From Gemmatimonadales bacterium (GTDB lineage Bacteria; Gemmatimonadota; Gemmatimonadetes; Gemmatimonadales; GWC2-71-9), in assembly GCA_036556505.1 (NCBI GenBank), contig DATBJH010000079.1:1629-65628 (forward strand): a stretch of 64,000 nt of DNA. Direction: 5' to 3'. Position 1 is the first letter of the stretch. Each line of letters begins with the position of its first letter. The notes below the pieces were generated by a model. It was not told where the DNA came from. It saw only the letters and a program-made list of their open reading frames with translations, and did no database searches. Both the position numbers and the translations under genes were made by a program. Below, piece by piece: positions 1 through 55,589 of this stretch.

Positions 1-116
1 CCTCGAAGGCCCGCTGGACCAGCGGGAGCATGTCGCGCGGAATGGCTCAAATCCTGTGGGCGTTATCCCATAGTCGCGCTCGCGGCCAAGGTGCGCAAGA
101 CGCGGCTCGATGTCGC

Positions 117-2177
117 TCAGAGCAGGAGGTCGGAGCGGATCCGGCTGCGAACGGCCCACCAGAGTGCCGCCCAGACGTTCGCCTCGCGGAGAACCACCCT
201 CGCTTCGCCCGTCATCCCGGGCCGGAGCGCGCCCGTGGGCGGCAGGGCGACCCTCGACTCTACGGTTCCGTCCGCGGAAGCCGCCGCGGCCACGCTTGCC
301 ACCGTCGCATCCACCCGAAGCCCCGGGTCGGCGTGAGCGATCAGCAGCGCCCGCTGGCCCGGGCGGGTCAGCGAAGCTCCGGCTCCCGAGAGGGCCACCC
401 TGGCCTCGGTCCCCGGGCCGCCGGCCACTCCCAGCAGGGTATCGCCGACCGAAACCATACGGCCCACCAGCGTATCCGGGCGCACCGTGGTGACGACGCC
501 CGGACCGGGGGAGCGGATCGCGAGCTGGCGAACCCGCTCCCGCAGCCCGGCAAGCCGGGTGGTCTCCGCCCTGCCCTCCGCCGCGATTCGAGCCATCTCG
601 CCCTGCGCGCCTCGGGCACGCGCCCCGGCCTCACGCACGGCGAGGGAGTCCACTGCGCGTCCCAGCGCCGCCACCTCTCTCTCCAGCTCGAGATTGCGGA
701 CCAGTACCAGCGGGTCGCCGGCGCGGACCCTCGCGCCTTCGGTCACCGACACCTCGAAGACCAGACCGCTGTCGGGGGCGATTACCGGCCAGGTGCTGCC
801 CGGGGCGACGACGAATGCCCCGTCGGCGCTGATCGGCCAGGGAAGGAACCCGGCCGCGACGACCAGGAGCAGAAGGGCGATGGCAGGCCGGCGGAATCGC
901 CGCGCTTTCGTCTCCGGCGCCCATTTGGCCTGCAGCTCGCGCCAGGCGGCGGCGACCGTGCGCCTCAAATCCCGGCGTGCCTGTCGGGTCACCAGCCACA
1001 GCACCAGCACCAGCGCCGCGATCCCGACCCCGCCGAGGACCCGTGAGACCCAGCCGTAGGCGATCGCGGCCGTCACCAGAAAGATCATGCTCGTGTACGC
1101 CGCGGCCAGCGTACCGTAGAGCAGGAAAATCCGCTGCTCCCGCTCATCCGCCGGCGGCATGGGCAGGTCCTGGCCCAGCACCCGCGTCCGCAGGAGCCAG
1201 GCGACGTGGCCGAACGCGCGTTGCCGCAGGTTGGGGACCTCCAGCCAGTCACTCAGCGCGTAGTAGCCGTCCAGGGGGATCAGAGGGTTCAGGTTCACGA
1301 GGACTGCCGCGAGCCCTCCGACCATCACGAAGGCGAGCGCGACATCGGAGGCCGCGGTTCCCGGCGCCGCGAGCCACCAGATGATGGCGGCGATGCCCGC
1401 CACGACCATCTCGATCCACGATCCCGCCGCCGTCACCCACAGCCGCGCCCTCCGCTCGGGGAAAGTCCAGGCGTCGTTCACGTTGCAGAAGAAGGCCAGC
1501 TCGAAGTAGAAGAGCATCGCGCCGATCTCGTGGACTTTCCCGCCGAAGTACTTGCAGGTATACCCGTGAGCCAGCTCATGCACCGCGACGATCACCATGG
1601 TGACCGCCCACAGCAACACATAGTCTCCCAGCGATGCCCGCAGCAGGTACACGGTGGCCATGGCGGCCGCGAACTCCGACCACTTCAGCCCCAGAATCAC
1701 CAGGTAGATGACGAAGAGCGCGACGGAGACCGTCAGGAAACCGCGGGTGAAGAAGAAGCGGAGGTAGGGCATGGTCCGGTCCATCAGTCGGTCCGGATCG
1801 CCGACGGACCACCTCAGCCGGAGGATGTCCCCCTGGAACATGCCGGGCCGGAGTCGCTTGCGGCGCTGCGCCCGCAGCCGCTCCATCAGCAGGACCGAGC
1901 TCTCCCGCAGGGTCCGCTCACAGAGCCCCATCGTCTTGAGCTTCTCCGCGAAGCGCGAGACCGCCACCGCGCTCACCTTGATGCCACGCTCCACCAGCTC
2001 GGCCGCGGCCTCGGCCGGGGTGCGGCGGCCGTCCAGCGACCTCATGACGGCGATCTCGAGCGGACGAAAGCGGAAGTACTTGCCGGCGGTGGGATCCTTC
2101 ACGATGAAGCTCTGCTCGCCCCGGTAGGTCTGCTCGACGAGGACGAGGTCGGGACGGAGGCGGGGATACTCGCTCAC
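117..2177 (-). CDS. Site-2-protease (peptidase M50) membrane metalloprotease fused to a C-terminal HlyD-like periplasmic adaptor domain
   Basis: 686-aa ORF. HELAHG zinc motif and downstream NLNPLIPLDGYY (S2P NxxPxxxLDG motif) within multiple hydrophobic helices. The last ~240 aa look like an HlyD/MFP lipoyl, coiled-coil and barrel module. GTG start overlaps the upstream stop (GTGA at 2174-2177). Confidence 0.85.
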   Translation of the reverse strand: MSEYPRLRPDLVLVEQTYRGEQSFIVKDPTAGKYFRFRPLEIAVMRSLDGRRTPAEAAAELVERGIKVSAVAVSRFAEKLKTMGLCERTLRESSVLLMERLRAQRRKRLRPGMFQGDILRLRWSVGDPDRLMDRTMPYLRFFFTRGFLTVSVALFVIYLVILGLKWSEFAAAMATVYLLRASLGDYVLLWAVTMVIVAVHELAHGYTCKYFGGKVHEIGAMLFYFELAFFCNVNDAWTFPERRARLWVTAAGSWIEMVVAGIAAIIWWLAAPGTAASDVALAFVMVGGLAAVLVNLNPLIPLDGYYALSDWLEVPNLRQRAFGHVAWLLRTRVLGQDLPMPPADEREQRIFLLYGTLAAAYTSMIFLVTAAIAYGWVSRVLGGVGIAALVLVLWLVTRQARRDLRRTVAAAWRELQAKWAPETKARRFRRPAIALLLLVVAAGFLPWPISADGAFVVAPGSTWPVIAPDSGLVFEVSVTEGARVRAGDPLVLVRNLELEREVAALGRAVDSLAVREAGARARGAQGEMARIAAEGRAETTRLAGLRERVRQLAIRSPGPGVVTTVRPDTLVGRMVSVGDTLLGVAGGPGTEARVALSGAGASLTRPGQRALLIAHADPGLRVDATVASVAAAASADGTVESRVALPPTGALRPGMTGEARVVLREANVWAALWWAVRSRIRSDLLL

Positions 2178-3163
2178 GGGCCGCGCCGCACCAGCTTCTC
2201 CCCGGGCGCCACGCCGCTCACCACCTCGACCCGATCGCCGGGCAGCTCGCCGCCGAGGGTCACCTGACGGAGCGATGCCCGCTCATCCTCCCAGACCAGG
2301 GCGTACCCCTCGTCCACCGCTTCGCGCGGCACCGCGACCACCCGGCGCCGCTCCGAGCCGATCTTCAGGGTGACGCTGCTGCCGGGCGGCATCCGGTCGC
2401 CCGACACCAGCTGCACCACCACCTCGCGGGTTCCGCTGGCCGCGTCGATCACCGGACTGGCCCGCACCACCCTGGCGCGGGCGCGCTCGCCTCTGGGCCC
2501 GACGACCTCCGCCTCCGCGCCGAGCTTCACGCCGAAGGCGGAGGCCTCCGGCACCCGCACGGAGGCGAGCACCGGCACGAGCGCGGTGACGTGAAACAGA
2601 GAGTCGCCGGACTCGACCAGGCGGCCCACCCGCGCGGTGCGGCCCGTGATGGCGCCGTCGAAGGGCGAGGCGATCCGCGTCAGGTCGAAGTCTCGCTGGG
2701 CCTTGCGCAGGCTGAGCACCGCCTCGCGCAACTCCAGCTCGACTCGCTCCGAGTCGGCCTGGGTGACCACCCCCGCCGACTTGAGCGCCCGCTGCCGCTC
2801 CGCCTGCACCACGGCATTGTCGTGCCGGTCCTTCGCCTGCTCCAGCGCGATGGTCTGGTCGGTGTTCTCCAGCCGGGCCAGCAGCTGCCCGGTGCGGACT
2901 CTCCCGCCCAGGTCCACCAGCACCGACTCGACCACCCCTGGCGATCGGGCATAGATCGCGGCGTCGTGCTCGACGTAGAGCTGCGCGGGCAGGGAGAGCG
3001 GGAGCTCCACCGTGATGGTATCCGCGGTGACGAGGGAAGCTGCCGTCGCCGCGTCGGCGACTTCCTCCGCGGGCTTCCCCGAATCGCGGTGGTCGTCGCC
3101 ATCGGCGCGGCTGCACGCCACCGAGCCGAGGACCAGGAGGAGTGGGATGGCGTTGCGTCTCAT
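2174..3163 (-). CDS. HlyD/RND-type periplasmic adaptor (membrane fusion protein) lipoprotein
   Basis: ORF 2174-3196 trimmed to the ATG at 3163 (MRRNAIPLLLVLGSVAC lipobox). ATGA overlap with the stop of the upstream gene (3160-3163). Lipoyl-like, coiled-coil and beta-barrel pattern typical of MFPs. Confidence 0.8.
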   Translation of the reverse strand: MRRNAIPLLLVLGSVACSRADGDDHRDSGKPAEEVADAATAASLVTADTITVELPLSLPAQLYVEHDAAIYARSPGVVESVLVDLGGRVRTGQLLARLENTDQTIALEQAKDRHDNAVVQAERQRALKSAGVVTQADSERVELELREAVLSLRKAQRDFDLTRIASPFDGAITGRTARVGRLVESGDSLFHVTALVPVLASVRVPEASAFGVKLGAEAEVVGPRGERARARVVRASPVIDAASGTREVVVQLVSGDRMPPGSSVTLKIGSERRRVVAVPREAVDEGYALVWEDERASLRQVTLGGELPGDRVEVVSGVAPGEKLVRRGP

Positions 3164-5100
3164 GCCCAGAGCCTCCACCAGAAGAGTCGGGCCCATCGCG
3201 CCGGCCCGCGCAGGATCCGCTCGATCGTAGAGGCTGGCGCCGTCAGCACCCGCGCATGAGCGGCCATCTCGGCTTTCAGAAGCCCACCCTCGTTGGGGAT
3301 CGCCGCGCGCACCGGGTACCAGACCTCGCCGTCCACCACGTGCGGGAGTTGGGCGATCGAGATGACCCGTCCTTCGAACGTGTGCGAAGGCAGCGCGTCG
3401 ACCCGCACCCGCACCTCCTGCCCCGGCCGGACCCGCAACACGTCGTGCTGTGCCACCCCGAGCTCCAGCTCGAGGGTGTCGGTGCGCCCGAGGACCAGCA
3501 GCTGGTCACCTTCGGCCAACGATGCGCCGACTCGCTCCTCCAGCCGTGGGGTCAATACCACTCCATCGGCCGGCGCGCGTACCTGGGTGAGACTCAGCTC
3601 CTCGTCGAGCAGAGCCAGCTCGCGGCGCAGCGCATCCGCGCGGATCCGCTGAATGCGCTCTTCGGCCGCGTCCCCGCGGCTGGCGGCCAGCGCGGCCAGC
3701 CGATCGGCCGTGGCCGCATCCGCCGCCTTGGCCTGCCGGTCGGTGGCCAGGGGGGTGGCCCGGAGCACCGCGAGGAGGTCCCCCCGCCGGACCCGTGAGC
3801 CTTCCCGCACTCCGATCCGCTCCACGGTGCCGTCCACCAGCACCCGCACCGGCGTCAGGCTGCTGGGCCGGAACAGCGGATCGGTCCCCGACACCCGGAG
3901 GGGCCAGTGCACGAGGGCCAGCGCCAGCACGACGAGGAAGGCGATACCGGCGTAGGTCAGGACCTTGCGCCGGCTCCAGCTCCGCATGGCTTGTCGCTTC
4001 GCCGCCAGCGCCCCCAGGGTTTCCACCAGCGGCACCTGGTGGTAGAGCTGCGCATTGCGGAGCGCGACGCCGGTCTGGTTCGCCAGGATCGCCGCCACTT
4101 CCCGCTGCGTGTCGCCCGCGAAGTCGGGCGTGCCGGACTCGTAGAGCAGCACCCCCAGGACGCCCTCGTCATCCTTGAGCGGCAGGTACAGGGCGCTTCT
4201 CACCTGGTCCTTGGCCAGGTCCTCGCCGAAGATGGTGACGAAGAGCCGCTCCGCGTCCGACGAGGGGTCCTGGCTGTCGGTCAGGTACAGCGGCTCGCCG
4301 CGGCCCGCGGCCCACTCGGCGCGTGCGATCAGGTCGCGCAGCCCGGGGTCCTCGGGGTCGACCTTCTCGGCGCCCGCGACCGCGCGGATCTCGCATTTGC
4401 CACGGTCGTACAGGCCCACCGCGCCGCGGTCGAACGTGAGCGCCTGTGAGGAGAGGTTCACCACCGACTGGAGCACCCGATCCATGTCGAGGGTCGCGGT
4501 GATCTCGCGGCTGATCTCGAGCAGCACCGCCAGGTCCTTCGCCCGGCGCTCCGCGCTGTGCAGCTGCGCGTTACGGATCGCGCCGGCCGCCGCAGCGGCC
4601 AGGCCTTCGAGCAGCTCGCGGTCGTTCGCGTCGAAGGCCCCGGTTCCGGTCTGCTTGTCCACCACCTGCACGGCACCGACCGTGACGCCCCCCGCCACCA
4701 TGGCGGTCGCCATGACCGTCGTGGAGATGGTATCTCCCGCGGCTTCGGTCGCCTCCTGGAAGCGGGGGTCGCGGACCGCCTCCATCACCATGGTCGTGCG
4801 CTGCTTCTTGGCCACGTCCCCCACGAACCCGGTCCCGACCGGCATCTTCGCGCCCACGAGCTTGCTCCCGGCGCCACCGACGGCGAGTCGGCAGTGGAGC
4901 ATGTCGCCCTCGGCGATCCAGAGCGAGCCGCCGGCCGCGCCCACGGCTGCGAGCACCCGGTCGAAGACCTGGGGCAGCAGCTGGTCGTAATCCAGGGTCG
5001 CGTTGAACTCGAGGGTGATCGAGTGGAGAAGGCGGAGCCGTTCGACTTCCCTGCGCAACTCCTCCAGCGACGCTGGCGGCACGCTCAGCAGGTCGGTCAT
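3160..5100 (-). CDS. Dual GAF domain protein with a TM helix and a C-terminal HlyD-like adaptor domain
   Basis: 646-aa ORF. Two GAF-like segments (aa ~25-170 and ~190-340), a hydrophobic helix (YAGIAFLVVLALALV), then an HlyD-like lipoyl, coiled-coil and barrel region. Confidence 0.85.
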   Translation of the reverse strand: MTDLLSVPPASLEELRREVERLRLLHSITLEFNATLDYDQLLPQVFDRVLAAVGAAGGSLWIAEGDMLHCRLAVGGAGSKLVGAKMPVGTGFVGDVAKKQRTTMVMEAVRDPRFQEATEAAGDTISTTVMATAMVAGGVTVGAVQVVDKQTGTGAFDANDRELLEGLAAAAAGAIRNAQLHSAERRAKDLAVLLEISREITATLDMDRVLQSVVNLSSQALTFDRGAVGLYDRGKCEIRAVAGAEKVDPEDPGLRDLIARAEWAAGRGEPLYLTDSQDPSSDAERLFVTIFGEDLAKDQVRSALYLPLKDDEGVLGVLLYESGTPDFAGDTQREVAAILANQTGVALRNAQLYHQVPLVETLGALAAKRQAMRSWSRRKVLTYAGIAFLVVLALALVHWPLRVSGTDPLFRPSSLTPVRVLVDGTVERIGVREGSRVRRGDLLAVLRATPLATDRQAKAADAATADRLAALAASRGDAAEERIQRIRADALRRELALLDEELSLTQVRAPADGVVLTPRLEERVGASLAEGDQLLVLGRTDTLELELGVAQHDVLRVRPGQEVRVRVDALPSHTFEGRVISIAQLPHVVDGEVWYPVRAAIPNEGGLLKAEMAAHARVLTAPASTIERILRGPARWARLFWWRLWA

Positions 5101-5145
5101 GGCCAGATTATGTGACAGGAGTGACGGTTTGGATAGAGGGCGGCG

Positions 5146-5184
5146 CCAAAAGCAAGCGCCGGCCCGGGACTGCCGAGCCGGCGC
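5146..5184 (-). terminator. Stem-loop plus T-tract (terminator/attenuator) after small peptide gene 1
   Basis: Minus strand reads GCGCCGGC-T-CGG CAGTC CCG-G-GCCGGCGC followed by TTGCTTTTGG. It lies between the peptide stop (5206) and the GAF-HlyD start (5100). Confidence 0.5.
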
Positions 5185-5205
5185 CGGGCTTGAAACGGAT
5201 GCTGC

Positions 5206-5361
5206 TTACTTCGGGAAGCCCTTCTTCCGGGGGGCGATCCTCTCCTCCAGCTCTTCCACCGAAAGCTCCACCGCCTCGGCGTCCTTACCAGTGGCATCGC
5301 GGACCTTGGCCTTCTGCTCGGGCGTCAAGTCGATGCGGATCGGGTTCTTGGGGCTGTCCAT
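5206..5361 (-). CDS. Small peptide 1 (51 aa), paralog of peptide 2; candidate precursor/signal peptide
   Basis: MDSPKNPIRIDLTPEQKAKVRDATGKDAEAVELSVEELEERIAPRKKGFPK. Strong SD (GGAGGAAACA) directly before the ATG at 5361. Shares MDS.K.P..TPEQK.K and VELSVEELEERIAPR.KG with the neighbouring peptide. Confidence 0.7.
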   Translation of the reverse strand: MDSPKNPIRIDLTPEQKAKVRDATGKDAEAVELSVEELEERIAPRKKGFPK

Positions 5362-5428
5362 TGTTTCCTCCGAGTAGTGAGCAGGCACTGGAGCGGGTCA
5401 GGAAGTCGGACGTAATGTCTGTCCCGGC

Positions 5429-5466
5429 CGTGAATCTATCGTAAAGGACAGGACGCCTATCGTGAA
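5429..5466 (-). promoter_or_regulatory. Three direct hexamer repeats (TTCACG/TTTACG) upstream of peptide 1
   Basis: Plus-strand CGTGAA at 5429-5434, CGTAAA at 5440-5445 and CGTGAA at 5461-5466 (spacing 11 and 21 nt). The proximal repeat is ~68 nt from the ATG. The same layout occurs upstream of peptide 2. Confidence 0.45.
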
Positions 5467-5500
5467 TTGAGCGACGGAGGGCCCGGGTCCCGAAATGCCG

Positions 5501-5531
5501 AACGCCGGCCCGTGCAGGACGAGCCGGCGTT
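5501..5531 (-). terminator. Stem-loop after small peptide gene 2 (paralogous to the 5146-5184 hairpin)
   Basis: Minus strand reads AACGCCGGC-T-CGT CCTGC ACG-G-GCCGGCGTT. It has the same bulged architecture as the hairpin after peptide 1, but only a weak T-tract (CGGCATTTCGGG). Confidence 0.4.
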
Positions 5532-5555
5532 TGCCTCGGAGGGAACCGGGGCTTG

Positions 5556-5690
5556 CTAGAGGCCCTTGGTCCGGGGGGCGATTCTCTCCTCCAGCTCTTC
5601 CACCGAGAGCTCCACCGTCTCGTCCTTCGCGGTCTTGGTGGTCTTGCCCTTCTGCTCGGGGGTGGGGGTCGGGCTCTTGGAGCTGTCCAT
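5556..5690 (-). CDS. Small peptide 2 (44 aa), paralog of peptide 1
   Basis: MDSSKSPTPTPEQKGKTTKTAKDETVELSVEELEERIAPRTKGL. SD GGAGGGAACC directly before the ATG at 5690. It forms the C-terminal end of the otherwise spurious 5556-6746 ORF. Confidence 0.7.
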   Translation of the reverse strand: MDSSKSPTPTPEQKGKTTKTAKDETVELSVEELEERIAPRTKGL

Positions 5691-5758
5691 GGTTCCCTCC
5701 TGAAGGTTGTGGCGACCGGCCATGTCGTCGAAGACCTGGGAGCAAAGTCGGCCCCACC

Positions 5759-5797
5759 CGTGAATCTTGCGTGAAACCTCTCTTGCCTCACCGTGAA
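5759..5797 (-). promoter_or_regulatory. Three direct TTCACG repeats upstream of peptide 2, in the divergent promoter region shared with the SARP regulator
   Basis: Plus-strand CGTGAA at 5759-5764, 5770-5775 and 5792-5797 (spacing 11 and 22 nt). The proximal repeat is ~69 nt from the ATG at 5690. Confidence 0.45.
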
Positions 5798-5808
5798 ACA
5801 GGCGTAGG

Positions 5809-8112
5809 TTGTCCTTTGTCTCCCCCGGGGACATTCCCATGCGGGCTCCCGTCCTCAACCTGATCGGATCACCCACCGTCGACCTCCCCGAGGTTGGCCC
5901 GGTCACGCCCCCCCTCGGGGCCAAGGCACTGGCCCTGCTGGCGTATCTCGTCCTCGAGCCTGGACCCCACTCACGGGAGGATCTCGCCGATCTCCTGTGG
6001 GGTGAGTCCCCCGAGCCCGAGGCCCGCGCATCCCTGCGGCAGGCATTGCGACAACTTCGTGTCAGTCTTGGAGATACGGTCAACTCCGACCGGCAGCACG
6101 CGAGGCTGGCAGGTCCGGTCAGCTGCGATGTCCTCGAGTTTCTGAGGCTGGCAGAATCCGATCCTGACGCCGCCGCCGCCGTGGCCATTCCCCGGTTCTT
6201 GTCCGGGTTCTCCATTCGCCACGCGCCCCGCTTCGACGAGTGGGTCGCCGAGACCCGGGCCAAGTTGCTCCGCCGCTTCATCGCCGTCCTGGCTGCCACG
6301 TCCCGCAACTTTATCGACCGGCGGGAGTGGCGTGCGGCGGTCGATCGGGCCGACCGGTGGCTCGCCTGCGACCCCCTGTCGGAGGAGGCGGCCCGGGCGG
6401 CTATCGAGGCCAGGTATCTGGCCGGGGACCGCGGGGCAGCCCTCGCGAAGCTTGGCGAGTATCGGTCCGTGCTGGTCAGGGAGACGGGGTGCGAGCCGTC
6501 CCATGCCCTGGTGGCTCTCGGCCGCCGGATCGAGTCGGACGCCGGCCCGGCCCGGCCGCGCCCGTCGGGCGACGACTGGTACGCTCGTGCGCCCCTCCTC
6601 GAAGCCAGTCTGGTCGGCCGGACCTCCGAATGGACCCGGCTGGTCGAGATCTGGAGGGAGGTCGAGAAGAGCGGGCGACGAGTCCTTCTGATCGAAGGCG
6701 AGGCCGGCGTGGGCAAGTCGCGGCTGGTGGAGGAATTCCTCCGCACCGTCGTGAGGGATGGGGCTACGCTGCTGCGGGGGCGCGGCTACGACGCCACGGC
6801 GGCGCTCCCCTTCGCGCCGATGGTCGAGGCGCTTCGCACCGCCCTTGATGCACCAGGCGTCGCCGGCACGGACCCGGAGTGGCTCACCGAGGCAGCCCGG
6901 CTCCTGCCGGAGATCCGGCAGCGATTTCCCGGCCTGGCAGAGCCGGACCCGAGTCCGGAGGCCGCGGAGGCATGGCGGCTGTACGAGGGAGTGGCACAGA
7001 TCCTCGCCTCCATCGCCGCCGAGCGCCCGCTGGTCGTCTCGCTCGATGACCTCCAATGGTGTGACGGCGACAGCTGCGCGCTGATCCAGTTCCTCGTGCG
7101 ACGCCTGGACCAGTCGCCGATCCTCTGGATCGGGGCCATCACCCTGGGCGAGCTGGAGCGGGACGCTCCCGCGGCCCGCCTGTGCCGCACCCTGCGCGCC
7201 CGATTCGGTGCCGAGACGGTCATGCTGGGCGGACTGAACGAGGACGAGGTCTGGCGATTGGTCCGGGAGCTGGGGCACGTCAGCGCGCCCACCGGCGGCC
7301 GCCGGTTTGCCCGGCGTATCCACCGGATCACCGGCGGCAATCCCTTTTACATCATCGAGCTGCTCAAGACCATGTTCGCGCAGGGATTGCTCGCGGCCGA
7401 CCAGGACAGCGGGGAATGGTCGGCCCTGCCGTCCGCCTTCGAGGAAGGCAAGGAGTTTCCGCTCTCCCGCACGGTGCACGAGGTGATTGCCGAGCGGGTG
7501 GAGCGTCTGCCCGAGGAGCTGGGTGAGATTCTCATCTCGGTGGCGGTTTCGGGAGGCCAGGGTTGCCGACCGGCCGTGCTGTCACATGTGCACGGGATCT
7601 CGCGGCTCCACGCGGCGGCGATCTGCGATGCGCTGGGCGAGCGGCGTCTGGTGATGGAGGACGGCGGCTCCTATCGCTGCCTGCACCCCGTCATCGCCCA
7701 CGTGGTTCGCGACGCGCTGACGCCGACCCGCCGTCGCGAAGTCCACCGGGCGCTGGCGGCGTCGTTGGAGCTGCTCGCCCCGGCTGCAGAGGCGCCGGAC
7801 ACCGCGGGGGACATCGCCCGCCACGCGGAGCAAGGCGGGGACGCGGCATTGGCGTTCCGCGCGGCGCTGGTCGCGGCCGAAGAAGCGCTCCGGCGGTTCG
7901 CGTTCACCGAGGCCTTGTCCTGGCTCGACCTCGCATCCGCGGTCGCCGGCAGTCGGGCGGATGCGGAGGAGGTGGACCGGAGGACGGTGCTGCTCATGGA
8001 GACCGCCGGCTGGCGCGAAGTTCCGCTCCATCGCGGCGGGCGCCCCCCCACTACGCGGGAGATCGTGGGAGAGGACCTGGACCTGCCGGTGCATGGCGGT
8101 CCTCCGCGGTGA
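5809..8112 (+). CDS. SARP/AfsR-like transcriptional regulator (winged-helix + BTAD + AAA/P-loop ATPase + helical repeat C-terminus)
   Basis: 767-aa ORF. N-terminal OmpR-type wHTH (ALALLAYLVLEPGPHSREDLADLLWGE...ASLRQALRQLR), a BTAD-like region (FDEWV...EARYLAGDRGAALAKLGEYRSVLVRETGCEPS), and Walker A GEAGVGKSRL. An alternative start is the ATG at 5839. Confidence 0.85.
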   Translation: MSFVSPGDIPMRAPVLNLIGSPTVDLPEVGPVTPPLGAKALALLAYLVLEPGPHSREDLADLLWGESPEPEARASLRQALRQLRVSLGDTVNSDRQHARLAGPVSCDVLEFLRLAESDPDAAAAVAIPRFLSGFSIRHAPRFDEWVAETRAKLLRRFIAVLAATSRNFIDRREWRAAVDRADRWLACDPLSEEAARAAIEARYLAGDRGAALAKLGEYRSVLVRETGCEPSHALVALGRRIESDAGPARPRPSGDDWYARAPLLEASLVGRTSEWTRLVEIWREVEKSGRRVLLIEGEAGVGKSRLVEEFLRTVVRDGATLLRGRGYDATAALPFAPMVEALRTALDAPGVAGTDPEWLTEAARLLPEIRQRFPGLAEPDPSPEAAEAWRLYEGVAQILASIAAERPLVVSLDDLQWCDGDSCALIQFLVRRLDQSPILWIGAITLGELERDAPAARLCRTLRARFGAETVMLGGLNEDEVWRLVRELGHVSAPTGGRRFARRIHRITGGNPFYIIELLKTMFAQGLLAADQDSGEWSALPSAFEEGKEFPLSRTVHEVIAERVERLPEELGEILISVAVSGGQGCRPAVLSHVHGISRLHAAAICDALGERRLVMEDGGSYRCLHPVIAHVVRDALTPTRRREVHRALAASLELLAPAAEAPDTAGDIARHAEQGGDAALAFRAALVAAEEALRRFAFTEALSWLDLASAVAGSRADAEEVDRRTVLLMETAGWREVPLHRGGRPPTTREIVGEDLDLPVHGGPPR

Positions 8113-8213: not shown

Positions 8214-9131
8214 ATGATTTTCGATTGCAGGCTCCGTTCCTCCGCGATCGTGGCCGCGACGCTGCTCGTCGCCGCCTGCCAGGATCTCCAACCCGACCGC
8301 CGACAGACCCCTGTCGCCGTTGTGGCTGCCGCTGACTCCGCGCCTGCCAAGCCCCGGCCGCCGGCGCCGCGGCGTGACACCGCGGTGCGTGAGGCCACCG
8401 GTCCCGAGGCGGAGGCCGCCTTCAGGGAGACCAGTCAGACCCTTCGAAGGCTGGTAGCGGCCGAGCAGTCGTTCTTCGCCGAAACCGGAGCCTACAGCGC
8501 CGACCTCGGCAGGGTGGGTTTTCGCCCGGTGGGGGCGAGCAAGGTGGAGTTCCTCTGGGTCGCGAAGGAAGGCTGGGCGGCGCGCGCCACGCATCCCGTG
8601 CTCGAGGGGCGCGACTGCGTCACCTTCACCGGCGGCGGCGGACCGGTACCCGCGACCCGGCGTCTGAAGCGGAGCGGCCGTCAGGGTGTGGTGGTATGCG
8701 ATCTCGTCGTCCCGGCGCAGCCAGTCCGACGCCCAGCGCCTCCGCCTCGAGACACCGCCCGGACGCCCGCTCACGCCTCCTCCTCCCCGCCCGCTGTGGT
8801 GGATACGACCAGCGCGCTCGACGCGGTTAACCCGAGCGTCCAGATGAGGGTGGACCTCCGCAAGATGGTCCAGGCCCAGACCGCCTATTTCGGCACCCAG
8901 AACACCTACTCCCGGCGGGTGGAGACCCTTCCCCTCCAGTTCGGTTGGCAGCGGGGCGTTTCCGTCCAGCTGATCCATGCCGATCAGCGCGGCTGGTCCG
9001 CCCGTGCGACGCACCAGGCGTTGCCCGACAAGAGCTGCGTGGTGTGGTTCGGAAAGCCACTCCGCCGGCCCATGACGGCAGAGCAGCAGAGGGTGCCCCC
9101 GCAGTCCGGCGTGCCCGTCTGCGACGACTAG
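8214..9131 (+). CDS. Lipoprotein with two tandem pilin-like globular domains
   Basis: Lipobox LLVAAC. Internal duplication: LRRLVAAEQSFFAETGAYSADLG...EGWAARATHPVLEGRDCV versus LRKMVQAQTAYFGTQNTYSRRVE...RGWSARATHQALPDKSCV. Each copy ends with a Cys...VCD pair. Confidence 0.65.
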   Translation: MIFDCRLRSSAIVAATLLVAACQDLQPDRRQTPVAVVAAADSAPAKPRPPAPRRDTAVREATGPEAEAAFRETSQTLRRLVAAEQSFFAETGAYSADLGRVGFRPVGASKVEFLWVAKEGWAARATHPVLEGRDCVTFTGGGGPVPATRRLKRSGRQGVVVCDLVVPAQPVRRPAPPPRDTARTPAHASSSPPAVVDTTSALDAVNPSVQMRVDLRKMVQAQTAYFGTQNTYSRRVETLPLQFGWQRGVSVQLIHADQRGWSARATHQALPDKSCVVWFGKPLRRPMTAEQQRVPPQSGVPVCDD

Positions 9132-9587: not shown

Positions 9588-9769
9588 GCAGGGTTCCTTG
9601 TTCGGGCGTGGTGGTGCGGGTAGTCGAGCGAAGGCCGGCGGGGGGCGGCGTCGAAATTCGTGACAACATTGTTGTGGCCGCGAGAGGGTCAAGACTCCGG
9701 CCCGCTTGGGCTTGACCGCTCGCCGGCCGGTCGTGTAAAGTGACTGTCCCGCGATCCGCGGGATCTCTT

Positions 9770-9842
9770 GGGGTGTAGCTCAATAGGCAGAGCGCCCGGC
9801 TGTTAACCGGGAGGTTGCTGGTTCGACCCCAGCCGCCCCAGT
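9770..9842 (+). tRNA. tRNA-Asn (GTT)
   Basis: Cloverleaf by hand: acceptor TGGGGTG/CGCCCCA, D-arm GCTC/GAGC, anticodon stem CCCGG/CCGGG with loop CTGTTAA, T-arm GCTGG TTCGACC CCAGC. CCA is not encoded. Confidence 0.9.
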
Positions 9843-15261: not shown

Positions 15262-18200
15262 GTGGCCCCTATGGCATCGCCCACCGACGCCAGCGCCCGG
15301 CTCGCCGCCGTCGCCCGGACCGCCCTCCTCGACACCCCGCCGGAGGAGGCGTTCGACCGTCTCACCCGGATGGCGGCCCGACTGCTCGGGGCCCCGGTCT
15401 CCCTCATCACCCTGGTCACCGACGATCGCCAGTTCTTCAAGAGCGCCATGGGCTTGCCCGAGCCCTGGGCGAGCCGCCGCAGCGCCCCGCTGAGCCACTC
15501 GTTCTGCCGCCAGGTGGCCGTCTCGGGTCAGCCGCTGGTGGTGGAGGACGCCCGGCGTCACCCGCTGCTCCGCGCCAATCCAGCGGTCCGGGAGTTCGGC
15601 TGGATCTCCTACGCCGGGGTGCCCCTGGTCACCCGGGATGGCGGGCTGGTGGGCTCGTTCAGCGTCGTGGACGGGATGCCCCGCCTCTGGTCGGAGCGGG
15701 ACGTCACTCTGCTGCGCGACCTCGCCGCCTGTGCCGCCTCCGAGATCGAGCTCCGGTTGCGGGAGACGCGCGACCCCGTGGCCAGGCCAGGCGGGAACGG
15801 CGGTCCCCATCCGCCCGAGGTCTTCGAGGACACCGGGATTCCGATGGGCGTCGCCTCTCCGGAAGGCCGCTGGGTCAGGGTCAACCGGGGCCTCGTCGAG
15901 CTGCTCGGGTATCGGGAGGACGAGCTGCTCGGCGCGCTGGCGGAAGGCATGATCCACCCCGACGACCGGCCGGTGCAGCGCGAGGCCCTGCGGCTGCTGC
16001 TCGCGGGCGAATGCTCTAGCTATACCTCGGAGCACCGCTGTGTCCCGCGCACCGGCGAGGCGATCTGGGGCCTCGTCACGGTGACGCTGGTGTCGGACGC
16101 CGCGGGTCGGCCGCGCCATCTGGTGTACGCCGTCCAGGACATCGGCGACCGGAAGCGGATCGAGGCGGAGCTCCGCGAGAGCGAGGAGCGCTACCGGCTG
16201 GTGGTGCAGGCCACCCGGCACGTCGCCTGGGACTGGAACCTGGTCAGCAATCGCGTGGTCTGGGGTGACGGCCTGGAGAGCCTGCTCGGCCATTCCCCGG
16301 CCGGCTCGATAACTACCGCCGACTGGTGGTACGAGCACATCCACGCCGAGGACCGGGAGCGCGTGGTGGCAGGCATCAGGGGCGCGCTGGACCGCGGGGA
16401 GCGCGCCTGGAACCAGGAGTATCGCTTCCGCCGGGGCGACGGCACCTACGCCCGGGTTACGGCCCGCGGCAACGTGATGACCGACCGGTCGGGCGATCCG
16501 GTCCGGGTGGTCGGTGCGCTGGCCGACGTGAGCCGGGAGCGGGAGGTCGAGGCGGAGCTTCGGGCCGACATCGCGGAGCGGCGGCGAGCCGAATCGTTGG
16601 CCGCCGGCCAGAGCCGGCTGCTCGAGCGGATCGCCACCGGTGAGGAGCTGGGCAGCGTGCTGGAGGCCATCGTCCGGTTCGCGGAGGAGCACGGCGACGG
16701 CACCGTCTCGCTCATGACGCTGGAGCAGGGCGGCGAGCAGCTCTGGTTGGCGGCGGCCCCCTCCCTGCCGCCGGAGGTCGCGATCGGCGTGCGACAGGTG
16801 CCGGTGGGACCGGCACACGGGAGCTGCGGCACCGCCGCATACCGGGGGACCCCGGTCATCGTCCGCGACATCGCGACCGATCCACTCTGGGACCATCCCG
16901 GTCGCGACGTCGTCCTGGCCGGCGGGCTGCGCGCCTGCTGGTCGGTCCCGGTGCTCTCCACCTCGGGGGCCGTCCTCGGGACGTTCGCGAATTACTACCG
17001 CGAGCCCACGGAGCCCTCCGCGGAGGAGCTCCGGACCATGGGGATCGCCAGCCATCTCGCGGGGATCGCGATCGAGCGCGCCCGGAACGTCGAGGCCGTG
17101 GCCCAATCCACCCGCCTGCTCCAGCAGGTGCTGGAGACGCTGCCGGTCGGGGTGTGGGTGATAGGTCCCAGCGGGCGCATCATCTACGGCAACGCCGCCG
17201 GCCAGCAGCTGTGGGGCGGGGTTCGCTACGTCGGGATCGACGGGTTCGCCCAGTTCAAGGGCTGGTGGCTGGACAGCGGGCGGGAGATCCGGCCGGACGA
17301 GTGGGCGGGGGCTCGGGCGGTCCGTGAAGGCGAGGTCTCGCTCAACGAGCTGATTCGGATCCAGGGATTCGACGGCTCGGAGCACATCATTCTCAACTCC
17401 GCGGTGCCGATCATGGGCGCGGGCGGCAGCATCGAGGGCGCCATCGTCCTCAATCAGGACGTGACCGAGCAGCGCGCGGCGGAGGACGCGCTGCGCCGGA
17501 GCGAAGAGCAGTTGCGCCAGGCGCAGAAGATGGAGGCCGTGGGGCAGCTCGCCGGTGGGATCGCACACGACTTCAACAACCTGCTCACCGCGATCCTGAG
17601 CTACTGCGAGCTGCTGCTGGAGGAAATCCGGCAGGGCGATCCCATCCGGGGCGACATCGAGCAGATCCGCCAGGCCGGCCAGCGTGCGGCCGGGCTCACC
17701 CGCCAGCTGCTCGCCTTCAGCCGCCGCCAGGTCCTCCAGCCCAAGGTGCTGTCGCTCAACGCGGTGGTCGAGAGCACCGAGGGCATGCTCCGCCGCCTCA
17801 TCGGCGCGGACATCGTGCTCGAAATACGGAGCGATCCCGCGCTGTGGCACGTGCTCGCCGACCCCGGCCAGATCGAGCAAGTCCTGGTGAACCTGGTGGT
17901 GAACGCTCGTGACGCGATGCCGCGGGGTGGTCGGATCCTGGTTGCCACGGGCAACCTGGAGCTGAAGGCGGATTCACCGATGCGCGGCAACGGCGTGCGG
18001 CCGGGCATGTATGTGTCGCTCCTGGTGCGTGACACCGGCGCGGGGATCGATCCCGCCCATCACGCCCGCATCTTCGAGCCGTTCTTCACGACCAAGGAGC
18101 CTGGGAAAGGCACCGGTCTGGGACTCTCGACCGTGTACGGGATCGTGCAGCAGAGTGGCGGACACGTCACCGTGGAGAGTACACCGGGCGAAGGGGCGGC

Positions 18201-18648
18201 CTTCACGGTTCTCCTGCCCCGGCACCTCGGAGGCGAACCGGCGACGGCGTCGAAGGCAGACCGCCGCCGGCTCCCCGGCGGAACGGAGACGCTCCTGCTG
18301 GTCGAAGATGAGGCGGCCGTGCGCAGCTCCGCGCGCCGCCTGCTCGAGCGGCAGGGTTACACCGTGCTGGAGGCCAGGCACGGCGGAGATGCGCTGAGGA
18401 TCGTCGAGGAGAGCAGGCGTCAGATCGACCTGGTGGTGACCGACCTGGTGATGCCCGAGATGGGTGGCAAGGAGCTGGCGGAACGGCTGCGCGCCCACCG
18501 GCCGGGGCTCAAGGTGCTGTTCATGTCCGGCTATACCGAGAAGGCGATCGCCTCGGGCGGCGTCATGCCCCCCAACACCGGCTTCGTAGAGAAGCCGTTC
18601 ACGGTGGAGCAGTTGATGCGAAGGTTGAGGGAGATACTGGACGAGTAG
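15262..18648 (+). CDS. Hybrid sensor histidine kinase (GAF-PAS-PAS-GAF-PAS-HisKA-HATPase-REC)
   Basis: 1128 aa. H-box [15 protein letters not shown] boxes ([25 protein letters not shown]), and a C-terminal receiver ([10 protein letters not shown]...[14 protein letters not shown]). Confidence 0.9.
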
Positions 18649-35297: not shown

Positions 35298-36113
35298 GTG
35301 ACACCCGCACTTCTTCTGATGGCCGCCTTGCTCCAGGAGCCCGCTCCAGGAGCCACGGAGATAGCCCTGGAGCGCGGCCTCGCCGAGCGTCTGGGACTCG
35401 AGGTGGGTGACACGGTCCGGCTCGGCGTGGCCGCCGACTCCCTCCGGCAAATCGCGATCGTGGCCGCCGTCTACGAGCCTCGCCCCGATCCCGCGGAACT
35501 GTCCCGCCTGGGGCGGCGGCTGCGAATGCACCTCCCCGATCTCGCCGCACTGCTCGATGCCCCGGACCGGGTGGACCGGTTCGGCATCGGTCTCGTGCCC
35601 GGGGTGGATGCGGACAGCGCGGCCGCCGTGGTCAACCGCTACGCGATCGGCTTCCGGGCTCATCCTTCCGCCGCGATTGCCTCGGAGTCGTCCCAGACCT
35701 TCAAGGTGGTGAGCCGATTCCACCGTGCGATCGGGTTCATCACCATCGTCGCCAGCGCGGTCTTCCTGCTCTGTATCATGCTGCTGAAGGTCGAGGAGCG
35801 TCGGATGGACGCGGCCGTCATGCGCTTCGTCGGCGTCAGACGGCGCACCATCTTCGGTGCGCTGGTCCTCGAGGCCGCGCTGGTGTCGGTGGTCGGTTCC
35901 GTGCTCGGCGCCGGGCTGGCCTGGCTGGCGGGGGCCGCCACCAACACCTATTACCGGCGGTACTTCGATACCGAGCTCATCTTCAGCCTCATCACCCCCC
36001 GCATCGTGCTCTTCAGCGTCTGCCTCTCGCTGCTGCTGGGCCTCGCCGCCGGCGCGGTCGCGGCGTGGAGACTGGTCCGGACGCCGCCCCTGGTGCTGTG
36101 GGGCAGGGCATGA
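35298..36113 (+). CDS. FtsX/MacB-type ABC transporter permease (short form)
   Basis: Periplasmic MacB-like segment, then an FtsX domain (MRFVGVRRRTIFGALVLEAALVSVVGSVLG...). GTG start. Confidence 0.7.
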   Translation: MTPALLLMAALLQEPAPGATEIALERGLAERLGLEVGDTVRLGVAADSLRQIAIVAAVYEPRPDPAELSRLGRRLRMHLPDLAALLDAPDRVDRFGIGLVPGVDADSAAAVVNRYAIGFRAHPSAAIASESSQTFKVVSRFHRAIGFITIVASAVFLLCIMLLKVEERRMDAAVMRFVGVRRRTIFGALVLEAALVSVVGSVLGAGLAWLAGAATNTYYRRYFDTELIFSLITPRIVLFSVCLSLLLGLAAGAVAAWRLVRTPPLVLWGRA

Positions 36114-39443: not shown

Positions 39444-39456
39444 ATTGGGTTCTTCC

Positions 39457-55582: not shown

Positions 55583-55589
55583 GACCGAC

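Follow-up and report, generated by a model that had tools for sequence, protein, structure and literature searches.

A putative leader-guided export module centred on a site-2 protease–adaptor fusion in a Gemmatimonadales bacterium

Two small peptides, a site-2 protease fused to a periplasmic adaptor domain and two further adaptor proteins are encoded together opposite a SARP-type regulator, and we consider it fairly probable that they make up a leader-guided, site-2-protease-processed, type-I-like export system, which here produces short basic peptides that are possibly signals. In the proposed mechanism, the SARP-ATPase regulator would activate two separate peptide promoters with three repeats each, and the RRE at the N-terminus of a 686-aa protein would bind the conserved leader (..ELSVEELEERIAP) of the peptides. 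The site-2 metalloprotease core of the same protein would cut at or just after the leader Pro, by analogy with the homologous daptide peptidase, whose cut follows ELExMEAP, and thereby release the short basic tails RTKGL and RKKGFPK. The MacA-like adaptor domain of the protease, a GAF-GAF-TM-adaptor and a lipoprotein adaptor may then form a mixed adaptor assembly that exports the product by docking on a TolC-type channel whose gene lies elsewhere, with regulation by the GAF domains, the SARP regulator and downstream Ser/Thr kinases, possibly as an autoinducing loop.

Gene layout, precursor peptides and promoters

The window, that is, the whole 64,000-nucleotide stretch that was analysed, comes from a soil Gemmatimonadales bacterium and carries the following genes at the locus:

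2..31, minus strand: start of a Ser/Thr protein kinase gene (first 10 codons MLPLVQRAFE), which runs on past the left window edge
117..2177, minus strand: RRE-M50-adaptor fusion, 686 aa (Pfam, NCBIfam, AF2 model)
2174..3163, minus strand: lipoprotein adaptor, 329 aa (TIGR01730, lipobox)
3160..5100, minus strand: GAF-GAF-TM-adaptor, 646 aa (Pfam, TM prediction)
5206..5361, minus strand: 51-aa precursor peptide (leader motif 5230-5250, tail 5209-5229)
5556..5690, minus strand: 44-aa precursor peptide (leader motif 5574-5594)
5809..8112, plus strand: SARP-type regulator (Pfam), divergent from the five minus-strand genes

All open reading frames that a previous sequence-only reading of this DNA had drawn on the minus strand are present where it placed them, and the translational coupling it described for the three machinery genes is real, with an ATGA overlap at 3160-3163 and a GTGA overlap at 2174-2177. 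Profile searches against Pfam and NCBIfam upheld its domain calls. The suspicion that the operon extends beyond the left edge was also borne out: the ATG at 31 opens a Ser/Thr kinase gene, and MLPLVQRAFE is the N-terminus of the kinase found directly 3' of the M50-adaptor gene in relatives L001 and L002.

The two small open reading frames, likewise proposed earlier, are real genes. Each is preceded by a GGAGG ribosome-binding site, both are kept beside the system in relatives, and codon comparison places their leader under purifying selection (97 synonymous-only codon differences and 47 amino-acid changes against eight relatives). The peptides are 65% identical and lack any hydrophobic segment. 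The 51-aa peptide consists of the leader MDSPKNPIRIDLTPEQKAKVRDATGKDAEAVELSVEELEERIAP and the tail RKKGFPK, and the 44-aa peptide of the leader MDSSKSPTPTPEQKGKTTKTAKDETVELSVEELEERIAP and the tail RTKGL; both carry ELEERIAP, after whose Pro the basic tails of 5-7 residues remain. The exact 51-aa sequence was found on 31 metagenome contigs, and the second leader type, as in the 44-aa peptide, also occurs in L004, L007 and L010. No Pfam or NCBIfam family matched the peptides at E<=0.01, and relaxing the threshold to E<=10 added only a sub-threshold match to DUF1192 (PF06698, the name JGI gives to the peptides; 15.3 and 16.3 bits, cutoff 25.5), in which the LSVEELEERIA stretch alone is aligned.

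Across the related loci, conservation ends right after the leader Pro, where the information content falls from 3-4.3 bits (positions -8 to -1) to less than 1.1 bits from +1 on. The strict motif LE.R[IV][AST]P gave 58 matches in 34 of 81 loci, compared with 3 matches in reversed sequences, and it is absent from the remaining 52 kb of the window. This corresponds to a roughly 20-fold enrichment over the controls, and the matches always lie at the N-termini of open reading frames beside the system. Among Gemmatimonadota the link between the peptide genes and the system persists even where these genes have shifted from its upstream to its downstream side.

Both peptide genes are flanked by predicted regulatory elements:

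5155..5185, minus strand: GC-rich hairpin of 13 bp with a T-run after the 51-aa peptide gene, predicted terminator or attenuator
5429..5467, minus strand: candidate SARP-binding repeats TTCACG, TTTACG and TTCACG, spacing 21/11 nt, upstream of the 51-aa gene
5501..5531, minus strand: GC-rich hairpin of 13 bp after the 44-aa peptide gene (-33.9 kcal/mol, z-score -3.3)
5759..5797, minus strand: three TTCACG direct repeats, spacing 22/11 nt, in front of the 44-aa gene and between it and the regulator gene

The repeats in front of the 51-aa peptide lie about 105, 84 and 73 nt upstream of its ATG, and a repeat triplet stands at the same distance upstream of the peptide genes in many Gemmatimonadota relatives. 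Since a hairpin ends each peptide gene, transcripts of the peptides are expected to be more abundant than those of the machinery trio. The sole match in an Rfam scan of the window was a tRNA. The regulator, whose likely true start is the ATG at 5839 (MRAPVLNLIGSP), contains an OmpR-like DNA-binding domain (Trans_reg_C), BTAD and AAA_16 (Pfam), and its divergent placement relative to the peptide genes is conserved in Gemmatimonadota only. This domain set, together with direct repeats at 11/22-nt spacing as predicted sites, marks it as a SARP/AfsR-type regulator. The likeness to AfsR-AfsK extends to the OmpR-type, BTAD and ATPase composition, the heptamer-like character of the 11/22-nt repeats and the Ser/Thr kinases adjacent in relatives, whereas the Gemmatimonadota setting and the small-peptide targets differ.

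The protease-adaptor fusion and its two partner adaptors

The 686-aa protein combines, in this order, a cytoplasmic RRE, a seven-TM site-2 (M50) metalloprotease and a periplasmic MFP/HlyD adaptor domain, and topology prediction gave seven TM segments with the N-terminus inside and the C-terminus outside. Its parts map as follows:

1914..2165, minus strand: RRE (PqqD-like leader-binding domain), residues about 5-88 (profile, AF2, Foldseek)
1566..1580, minus strand: HExxH zinc-binding motif HELAH, residues 200-204 (HELAHG 200-205), invariant in homologues
1266..1295, minus strand: NxxPxxxxDG motif NLNPLIPLDG, residues 295-304, second S2P catalytic motif with invariant residues
120..842, minus strand: adaptor domain with barrel-sandwich, alpha-hairpin and beta-barrel (HlyD_3, HlyD_D23, AF2, Foldseek)

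A profile of the N-terminal domain searched against the PDB matched TbiB1, PaaA, PqqD and TfuB1, and Pfam PqqD was matched in 14 of 22 family members (best E 2.7e-10). The AF2 model of the domain (pLDDT 89.9) showed a three-strand plus three-helix topology, and its best Foldseek matches were the leader complexes of TfuB1 (6jx3) and TbiB1 (5v1u), with a TM-score of 0.73 and an rmsd of 2.9 A to TfuB1 (6jx3_B). As modelled, the domain thus has an RRE (PqqD-like) fold, and it would be expected to bind the leader.

The protease core has both catalytic motifs and the flanking TM segments of a site-2 protease (peptidase M50). Across 30 diverse homologues (25-51% identity) HExxH does not vary, nor do N295, N297, P298, D303 and G304 of the NxxPxxxxDG motif; the Pfam Peptidase_M50 score of 25.5 is slightly below the cutoff of 27.2, and AF2 modelled the active-site region with low confidence. 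Pfam identified no PDZ or CBS domain in the protease, and a search of the whole sequence against the PDB returned nothing beyond weak lipoyl-domain and MjS2P matches. The adaptor region was modelled with a pLDDT of 85-94, its predicted alpha-hairpin being formed by helices 496-522 and 525-550, and Foldseek retrieved MacA (3fpp, E 1e-13) as well as MexA and AcrA.

Among curated families, daptide_HExxH (NF041824, 'daptide biosynthesis intramembrane metalloprotease') is the nearest: it aligns with residues 7-397 over its full length (model positions 3-362 of 379) at 213.5 bits, a score below its cutoff of 300. JGI names the 686-aa protein after KEGG yydH, and the sequence-only reading had taken YydH as its precedent; the daptide peptidase MpaP is the better one, at 213 versus 39 bits. 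That reading also proposed cleavage of the small peptides by the M50-HlyD fusion. We infer the same, with strong support from the RRE, the daptide-peptidase homology, the leader boundary at Pro and the co-occurrence of leader and machinery across phyla.

HlyD_D23 and HlyD_3 were found by Pfam in all three large proteins, as had been read from the letters, and in the 646-aa protein a pair of GAF domains does precede a single TM helix (Pfam GAF, GAF_2 and GAF_3; TM prediction):

4576-4995, minus strand: first GAF domain (Pfam)
4054-4488, minus strand: second GAF domain (Pfam)
3907-3963, minus strand: predicted single TM helix, residues 380-398
3163-3855, minus strand: periplasmic adaptor domain (Pfam HlyD_D23, HlyD_3)

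The lipoprotein adaptor lies in an open reading frame at 2174-3196, whose true start is most likely the ATG at 3163 that overlaps the upstream stop, giving the 329-aa form that NCBI annotates. It carries the lipobox LGSVAC (in MRRNAIPLLLVLGSVAC) and is a full four-domain MFP, matching TIGR01730 RND_mfp at 153 bits (cutoff 94.9) over profile positions 2-308 of 322.

Spread across phyla and the range of cargo

The protease-adaptor fusion forms 3105 clusters at 50% identity from at least 595 species, distributed over Gemmatimonadota, Acidobacteriota, Planctomycetota, Bdellovibrionota, Gammaproteobacteria, Chlamydiota, Verrucomicrobiota, Chloroflexota and other groups, and the machinery and the LE-x-RIAP tag are found together in ten or more bacterial phyla. 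The GAF-adaptor is kept beside the protease across phyla, and both it and a second adaptor accompany the fusion in 38 of the 50 loci with full flanks. Cultured carriers include Granulicella sp. S190, Algibacillus agarilyticus RQJ05 and Maioricimonas sp. JC845.

LE-x-RIAP-type leaders adjoin the fusion across phyla on tiny peptides, on peptides of 25-70 aa and on acidic proteins of 800-1500 aa. The sequence-only reading missed that the system is widespread and that its cargo extends beyond small peptides. The large proteins are adhesin-like, Cys-poor and without Sec signal or hydrophobic segment; they have a pI of about 4, bear the leader at the N-terminus and confine K and R almost entirely to it. 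Other precursors are cassette-like, as in L032 (RKAMPx3-RKAIP-RKSF) and L070 (repeats E(A/S)RKAP). An extended LTxEQ..ATG N-terminal domain precedes long repeat cargo in L070 and L073 and so behaves as a leader. A simple substrate heuristic returned no candidate in L036, L065, L069, L071, L072, L077, L079 and L081, and a separate motif scan none in L047, L074 and L076 either; substrates at these loci are divergent, further away or absent.

TolC-type genes are adjacent at loci with the 800-1500-aa leader proteins. TolC-family OEP genes adjoin the core in L048, L049 and L062 (Pfam), and tblastn indicated TolC-family genes beside it in L042, L066, L067 and L072; these loci belong to Bdellovibrionota, Gammaproteobacteria and Chlamydiales. 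Near the core, neither the window nor Gemmatimonadota and Acidobacteriota relatives yielded an outer-membrane factor; the relatives were covered by Pfam gene tables of L001 and L002 and by tblastn with divergent queries, which could miss distant homologues. Adaptor-mediated outward passage of the peptides, as proposed from the letters, is thus supported indirectly, through the TolC-type genes and leader-bearing acidic cargo in operons of other phyla. The GAF domains may, as that reading also suggested, gate the process with a small ligand.

The earlier reading had seen no pump, outer-membrane factor or modifying enzyme in the window. This is correct near the locus, where neither an outer-membrane factor nor a peptide-modifying enzyme was found, but ABC transporters do occur elsewhere in the window: a LolCDE/MacB-type set at 35298-37992, about 30 kb away, and a remote MlaF/MlaD pair at 54830-56501. 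They are unrelated in context to the locus, and none is adjacent. ORFs with ABC ATPase motifs adjoin the core in 0 of 81 loci, and a MacB, RND or MFS partner or other inner-membrane energising transporter likewise in 0 of 81. Because the MacB/LolCDE-like genes (35-38 kb) are 30 kb off and no such gene stands near the core of any relative, we rejected them as the power source and left them out of the system.

It is conceivable, and we put it forward tentatively, that the RRE-S2P-adaptor, GAF-adaptor, lipoprotein adaptor and TolC-type channel represent an unrecognised class of envelope-spanning secretion in diderms that works without an ABC, RND or MFS transporter. The intramembrane protease would be its gatekeeper and entry port, a basic or charged stretch with LE-x-RIAP (KKLExTKP in Acidobacteriota) its own N-terminal signal, and its cargo would range from pentapeptide signals, as here, to adhesin-like proteins of 1500 residues. 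No published description of the gene combination or of LE-x-RIAP-tagged machinery was found, and literature on M50/S2P-HlyD, RRE-HlyD and EERIAP gave nothing relevant, in agreement with the earlier remark that this is not a named system. If the reading as a leader-guided export system is right, a very large family now called 'efflux adaptor' or 'putative peptide zinc metalloprotease' gains a function, the LE-x-RIAP tag would predict substrates genome-wide, and leader recognition by RREs would reach beyond RiPP biosynthesis into protein secretion. It would also pose the puzzle of how three adaptors, a protease and TolC move cargo through two membranes in the absence of a dedicated ATPase. The short, fast-diversifying, separately promoted peptides would be candidate pheromones in soil Gemmatimonadota and Acidobacteriota, phyla with, to our knowledge, almost no known cell-cell signalling.

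Alternative readings and relation to known systems

Site-2 proteases classically release cytoplasmic fragments (RseP, SpoIVFB), and the peptides could instead be cytoplasmic regulators, for example of the SARP-ATPase or the kinases, which a GAF-gated protease activates or destroys in response to a ligand inside the cell or to an envelope cue that the adaptor assembly senses, the N-terminal fragment of 37-44 residues being active inside the cell. In Gemmatimonadota the N-terminal part is long and highly conserved, and this leader could itself be the functional moiety; some loci have tails of 3-4 residues (LRI, LMF, IKL), very short for a product. Genes for a regulator and kinases are closely linked to the system in this lineage, and neither a pump nor an outer-membrane factor is adjacent here. 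We nevertheless regard regulated-proteolysis signalling as unlikely, because elsewhere the leader precedes the large acidic proteins with TolC genes in the same operon, which points to the C-terminal part as the secreted one, and because the same extended N-terminal domain, LTxEQ..ATG, stands in front of long repeat cargo in L070 and L073. Three periplasmic adaptor domains with TolC-docking hairpins also fit a purely cytoplasmic circuit poorly. Anti-sigma-type regulated proteolysis was rejected, as the peptides have no TM segment and the protein lacks PDZ and CBS domains.

A still less probable reading is a modified or antimicrobial RiPP pathway, in which enzymes encoded elsewhere modify the tails or bodies and the three-gene set serves maturation and immunity-export. 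RRE leader peptidases are a RiPP hallmark, several diversified precursor copies occur per locus, and the nearest curated family is a daptide peptidase. In daptides, an RRE-S2P fusion cuts the ELExMEAP-bearing leader after P(-1). The locus resembles daptide clusters in the N-terminal RRE and M50 protease of MpaP/DapP, with full-length homology, and in having several small precursor genes with an ELE..AP leader that ends in Pro at the cleavage site, which is predicted here. In contrast to daptides, the protease scores below the family cutoff, continues into a periplasmic adaptor domain and has two further adaptors as partners, while MpaB/C/D/M modification enzymes and ABC exporters are absent. 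No oxidative decarboxylase, PLP aminotransferase or methyltransferase was found among the window neighbours or in the Pfam tables of L001 and L002, and no radical SAM, YcaO or dehydratase near the core in those tables. The invariant C-terminal Thr is missing as well (the window peptides end in K and L, those of relatives in many residues), the host is a diderm, and cargo of 3 aa to 1500 aa is unlike that of a RiPP. A six-frame scan of the window ORFs for CxxxCxxC gave a single case, in an out-of-frame ORF.

YydH/EpeP, the M50 protein of YydFGHIJ/EpeXEPAB, matures a small ribosomal peptide and has been suggested to aid export. The pairing of an M50 membrane protease with a small ribosomal peptide is shared, but the YydH/LiaK model (NF058609) gives 39.4 bits against a cutoff of 225, the locus has no radical SAM epimerase or ABC transporter, and leader and architecture differ. 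Both daptide and epipeptide clusters were rejected as identities since their defining enzymes are missing.

The export system favoured here also resembles in design PCAT/C39-HlyD-TolC machinery such as colicin V CvaAB-TolC. In both, the leader is apparently removed by a membrane peptidase coupled to the export apparatus, the adaptors have TolC-docking hairpins (here three adaptor domains, with matches to MacA, MexA and EmrA), and cargo is acidic, Cys-poor and without a Sec signal. TolC-family genes belong to the operon in several phyla, but the window yielded none, and one may be encoded elsewhere. However, there is no ABC transporter or ATPase, and an ABC transporter with a C39 domain was adjacent neither at the window locus nor in the 81 loci; an M50 metalloprotease with an RRE takes the place of the C39 cysteine protease, RIAP instead of Gly-Gly closes the leader, and three different adaptors are present, one with cytoplasmic GAF domains.

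MacAB-TolC is comparable through MacA, which scored best in the structural comparison of the adaptor domain, and TriABC-OpmH, with TriA and TriB, is a precedent for combining different adaptor species. In contrast to such tripartite pumps, the adaptor is fused to a protease and no cognate MacB, RND or MFS partner is adjacent in 81 loci. That the proteins are ordinary efflux adaptors for a pump encoded elsewhere, beside a housekeeping S2P and incidental small ORFs, agrees with their database names ('efflux RND transporter periplasmic adaptor subunit', 'HlyD family efflux transporter') and with the MacB/LolCDE-type ABC system elsewhere in the window, but is very improbable, and the comparative data largely refute it: protease and adaptor form a single polypeptide in >3000 sequence clusters, purifying selection acts on the small ORFs, whose promoters are separate and conserved, the motif statistics place the leader beside the system, and an RRE implies a peptide substrate. 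A phage-defence system was also dismissed, as a PADLOC search gave no match.

For the short tails released in the proposed export system, a functional analogy may be drawn to Eep/RseP, a site-2 protease that yields signalling peptides of 5-8 residues from precursors in Firmicutes. Eep differs in cutting lipoprotein signal peptides or SHP precursors, in having a PDZ and no RRE, and in relying on a separate ABC exporter, and homology is limited to the M50 core.

Organization of the locus and its protease fusion

The five minus-strand genes and divergent regulator of the sequence-only reading were all found at the positions claimed, with two hairpins between them:

117-2177, minus: RRE-S2P(M50)-adaptor fusion (686 aa)
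2174-3163, minus: lipoprotein adaptor (329 aa)
3160-5100, minus: GAF-GAF-TM-adaptor (646 aa)
5155-5185, minus: 13-bp GC-rich hairpin 3' of the 51-aa peptide gene
5206-5361, minus: 51-aa peptide, tail RKKGFPK
5501-5531, minus: 13-bp GC-rich hairpin 3' of the 44-aa peptide gene
5556-5690, minus: 44-aa peptide, tail RTKGL
5809-8112, plus: SARP-type regulator

The 4-nt stop/start overlaps it described are real (ATGA, 3160-3163; GTGA, 2174-2177), and because of the first the lipoprotein adaptor most likely starts at ATG 3163, yielding the 329-aa form that is also found in the NCBI annotation. Pfam and NCBIfam profile searches confirmed its domain assignments: the 646-aa protein has two GAF domains and HlyD_D23/HlyD_3, the lipoprotein is a full RND_mfp-type adaptor (153 bits against an NCBIfam cutoff of 94.9), the 686-aa protein matches HlyD_3/HlyD_D23 and, weakly, Peptidase_M50, and the regulator carries Trans_reg_C, BTAD and AAA_16. 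The NCBI entries (HEY7504518-22, from a metagenome-assembled genome) list the peptides as 'hypothetical' and label the large proteins as efflux adaptors. The operon also extends past the left edge, as had been suspected: the minus-strand ATG at 31 begins a Ser/Thr kinase gene, whose visible product (MLPLVQRAFE; 2-31, minus) matches, in close relatives, the first in a pair of kinase genes that lie 3' of the operon.

Residues 7-397 of the 686-aa protein matched the NCBIfam model NF041824 ('daptide biosynthesis intramembrane metalloprotease') over its full length (E 5e-63), although the score of 213.5 bits falls short of the equivalog cutoff of 300. According to the daptide paper, the leader peptidase of that pathway is an RRE domain N-terminally fused to a site-2 protease, and the leader it removes carries ELExMEAP with Pro at -1. 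A profile built from the N-terminal 110 residues of 22 diverse homologues of the fusion retrieved TbiB1 (5v1u, E 0.002), PaaA, PqqD (5sxy, 3g2b) and TfuB1 from the PDB, and Pfam PqqD was matched by 14 of these 22 homologues (best E 2.7e-10). Modeled with AlphaFold2 (pLDDT 89.9), residues 1-110 adopted the canonical three-strand, three-helix topology, for which the best Foldseek matches were the leader-bound lasso-peptide RRE proteins TfuB1 and TbiB1; next came the RRE domains of CteB, TglHI and LynD. Both protease motifs, HExxH (residues 200-204) and NxxPxxxxDG (295-304), were invariant in 30 homologues of 25-51% identity. Hydropathy analysis identified seven TM segments, and the RRE is therefore predicted to be cytoplasmic and the C-terminal domain periplasmic; similarly, the single TM helix of the 646-aa protein would place its GAF domains in the cytoplasm and its adaptor domain in the periplasm. 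The C-terminal domain of the fusion was modeled at pLDDT 85-94, includes a two-helix hairpin and matched MacA, MexA, AcrA and EmrA, which are adaptors that dock onto TolC-type channels.

Small peptides and their promoter repeats

Both peptide genes are preceded by GGAGG-type ribosome-binding sites, and their products have ELSVEELEERIAP in common, after which only five (RTKGL) or seven (RKKGFPK) residues follow. This shared region has the same register as the daptide leader, E(-8) L(-7) E(-6) .. A(-2) P(-1), counting back from the conserved Pro. Across 37 leader codons compared with eight relatives, 97 synonymous-only differences were found against 47 amino-acid changes, and the peptide ORFs are therefore under purifying selection as proteins. 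Among 68 unique homologous N-termini, information content was 2.1-4.3 bits at -8 to -1 (4.3 for Pro) and below 1.1 bits from +1, a drop that is the signature of a leader/cargo boundary. The JGI label 'DUF1192' for the peptides corresponds to a sub-threshold match (15-16 bits against a cutoff of 25.5).

Upstream of each peptide gene, at positions near -105, -84 and -73 relative to its ATG, lie three direct repeats of TTCACG with spacings of 22 (or 21) and 11 nt. The triplet recurs at the same distance before peptide genes in many Gemmatimonadota relatives possessing the regulator as well. SARP regulators (ActII-ORF4, DnrI, AfsR) are known to bind direct repeats spaced at one and two turns. The hairpin of the 51-aa gene and the start codon of the GAF-adaptor gene are only about 55 nt apart (5101-5154, minus). 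The GAF-adaptor gene has no obvious Shine-Dalgarno sequence and is preceded by a CATAAT ending 7 nt ahead of the ATG; expression of the machinery genes may depend on read-through or on a near-leaderless transcript.

Distribution, cargo and proposed mechanism

The protease-adaptor fusion family is very large: 3105 clusters formed at 50% identity match it with E<1e-30, most of them over the full length (680-860 aa), and of the 599 stretches among the listed matches in a species-representative genome set, at least 595 code for a relative. Among its hosts are Gemmatimonadota, Acidobacteriota, Planctomycetota, Bdellovibrionota/Oligoflexia, Alteromonadaceae, Algibacillus, Chlamydiales, Ignavibacteria, Zixibacteria, Verrucomicrobiota and Limnocylindrales. 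Homologous loci were fetched from other genomes (81 loci, L001-L081), and a GAF-adaptor and a second adaptor gene adjoin the fusion in 38 of the 50 with enough flanking DNA (36 of 38 in Gemmatimonadota and Acidobacteriota). ORFs with ABC ATPase motifs adjoined the core in none of the 81 loci. A candidate substrate was recognisable in approximately 40 of the 50 full-flank loci.

The neighborhood survey proposed in the sequence-only reading revealed that leader-bearing ORFs recur beside the core: the strict pattern LE.R[IV][AST]P, always near an ORF's N-terminus, produced 58 matches in 34 of the 81 loci, compared with 3 in reversed-sequence controls and none in the other 52 kb of the window. Gemmatimonadota loci contain one to six peptide genes, which may precede or follow the core; their leader is near-invariant, and their tails, 3-22 residues long, vary. 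A variant family in Terriglobia/Acidiferrales consists of 23-40-aa peptides of the form MAKK..KKxKK(L/I)ExTKP-L plus a short tail (48 members in 19 loci by small-ORF clustering; 13 loci by strict pattern, 0 in controls). Precursors with repeats after the leader were present in three loci:

L032, 10978-11235: cassette tail of RKAMP three times, RKAIP and RKSF
L070, 9929-10564, minus: E(A/S)RKAP repeats
L073, 11110-11460, minus: AKKVMAKKAV repeats

From their sequences, the first two suggest multi-copy short products, and as the repeats of all three end in a cleavage-site-like motif, multi-core precursors cut several times are suggested. Four further loci (L055, L064, L075, L078) encode short leaders followed by 25-70-aa Gly/Asn/Pro-rich peptides. 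At the other extreme of size, in six loci of Bdellovibrionota, Planctomycetota and Alteromonadaceae (L037, L042, L048, L049, L062, L066) proteins of 800-1500 aa carry the motif N-terminally, after a Lys-rich stretch; they are extremely acidic (pI ~4), with almost no Lys/Arg beyond the leader and no hydrophobic segment; the L048 cargo has weak adhesin-type domain matches. TolC-family (OEP) genes belong to the cluster in these large-cargo loci, and in L049 five genes stand in a tight array (cargo, GAF-adaptor, S2P-adaptor, adaptor, OEP).

A conserved ..NGNPGN(E/Q)VSNGAKP(Q/H)P.. core after a short LE-x-RIAP leader was observed in L055 (3927-5184), L064 (7293-7943) and L075 (7543-7689), spanning three phyla (Acidobacteria gp13, Gemmatimonadota and Limnocylindrales). 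The GAF-adaptor is not present in these three loci, and their peptides may be a distinct product sub-family.

The identities of the genes and domains, the fold, the motifs and topology, the statistics of co-occurrence, the conservation boundary and the promoter repeats were observed, whereas binding, the precise site of cleavage, export and what powers it, any ligand of the GAF domains and the biological role are inferred. The leader would be bound by the cytoplasmic RRE and cut by the S2P core at or beside the conserved Pro, and the C-terminal part would then pass to an envelope-spanning conduit of three adaptor proteins (the protease itself being one) and a TolC-type channel; in the window peptides, the cargo would be reduced to five to seven basic residues. 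We consider this overall reading of leader-guided S2P processing and adaptor/TolC export reasonably probable, and are more confident of peptide processing by the protease than of export through the adaptors. The former, the central idea of the sequence-only reading, fared better than expected in the full analysis. A cytoplasmic regulated-proteolysis circuit, with the conserved N-terminal fragment as the active product, would fit the very short tails but accommodates the large-cargo/TolC loci poorly, and the same N-terminal domain stands ahead of long cargo in L070 and L073, making such a circuit unlikely. Less credible still is a RiPP pathway whose modifying enzymes lie outside the locus; the gene tables of L001 and L002 show no such enzymes linked to the core. 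Ordinary efflux adaptors with incidental small ORFs are contradicted by the selection, promoter and motif data and are hardly plausible.

Leader-guided processing coupled to export resembles the RiPP leader-peptidase logic of the daptide enzyme MpaP and the export logic of bacteriocin-type type I secretion, where the leader is cut by a peptidase coupled to an adaptor and TolC. Membership of the daptide, epipeptide, PCAT-T1SS and tripartite-pump families was nevertheless rejected because their defining components were tested for and absent, and no description of the fusion, trio or motif was found in the searchable literature. Overall, the locus exemplifies a widespread, unnamed system whose substrate tag can be recognised; the system would combine known kinds of machinery (an RRE-guided leader peptidase and type-I-like export) and has a substantial chance of being a secretion system class of its own. 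More speculatively, a secreted peptide signal would be compatible with the separate SARP-type promoters, attenuating hairpins, fast-evolving tails and linked kinases.

Lineage-specific regulators and other features of the window

In the comparison of loci, only Gemmatimonadota have the SARP regulator and the kinases, a combination of linked kinases and SARP-ATPase regulator that recalls AfsK/AfsR. Two kinase genes directly follow the protease-adaptor gene in close Gemmatimonadales relatives (L001, 12108-14031; L002, 12147-14749) and are not at this position in more distant Gemmatimonadota. Upstream of Acidobacteriota cores, a conserved STAS/anti-sigma-antagonist-like C-terminus (..MLLKMVRLDSILDL..EDEATAL..RI) recurs at ~4-7 kb (L040, L044, L046, L052, L053, L057-L060), and this gene may represent lineage-specific regulation analogous to the Gemmatimonadota SARP regulator and kinases.

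Elsewhere, the window contains the following:

8214-9131, plus: 305-aa ORF between the regulator and CoxG gene
9768-9842, plus: tRNA-Asn (GTT), between the CoxG-like gene and malate synthase, the sole RNA family detected in the window
15262-18648, plus: hybrid histidine kinase (1128 aa) with two GAF, several PAS, HisKA/HATPase and receiver domains
19411-24580, minus: SNF2/ResIII-type helicase (808 aa) beside an Eco57I-like N6-adenine methylase (993 aa), which looks like a restriction-modification or defence pair
35298-37992, plus: MacB/LolCDE-type ABC system (FtsX permease, MacB_PCD+FtsX permease, ABC ATPase)
39400-42387, plus: Ser/Thr kinase (995 aa)
54830-56501, plus: ABC ATPase then MlaD-domain protein (MlaF/MlaD-like, Mla-type lipid transport), unrelated to the locus

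The earlier statement that no ABC system is visible in the window needs amending, as two exist (35.3-38.0 and 54.8-56.5 kb), but both are distant from the locus and have no conserved counterpart next to the system in relatives. The MacB/LolCDE-type system is of note because the core's adaptor domains most resemble MacA; it lies 30 kb away, and the relative loci that were fetched show none like it close to the core. The kinase domain of the 995-aa protein is 44-53% identical to those of the two operon-following kinases of the relatives, and it may be a paralogue in the same signalling family. The 305-aa ORF matched no Pfam family. In L001 and L002 it is missing from this place, and CoxG lies immediately next to the regulator; by eye, the window's ORF can be seen to duplicate part of itself: an internal duplication is present (..EGWAARATHPVLEGRDCVTF.. 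and ..RGWSARATHQALPDKSCVVWF..).
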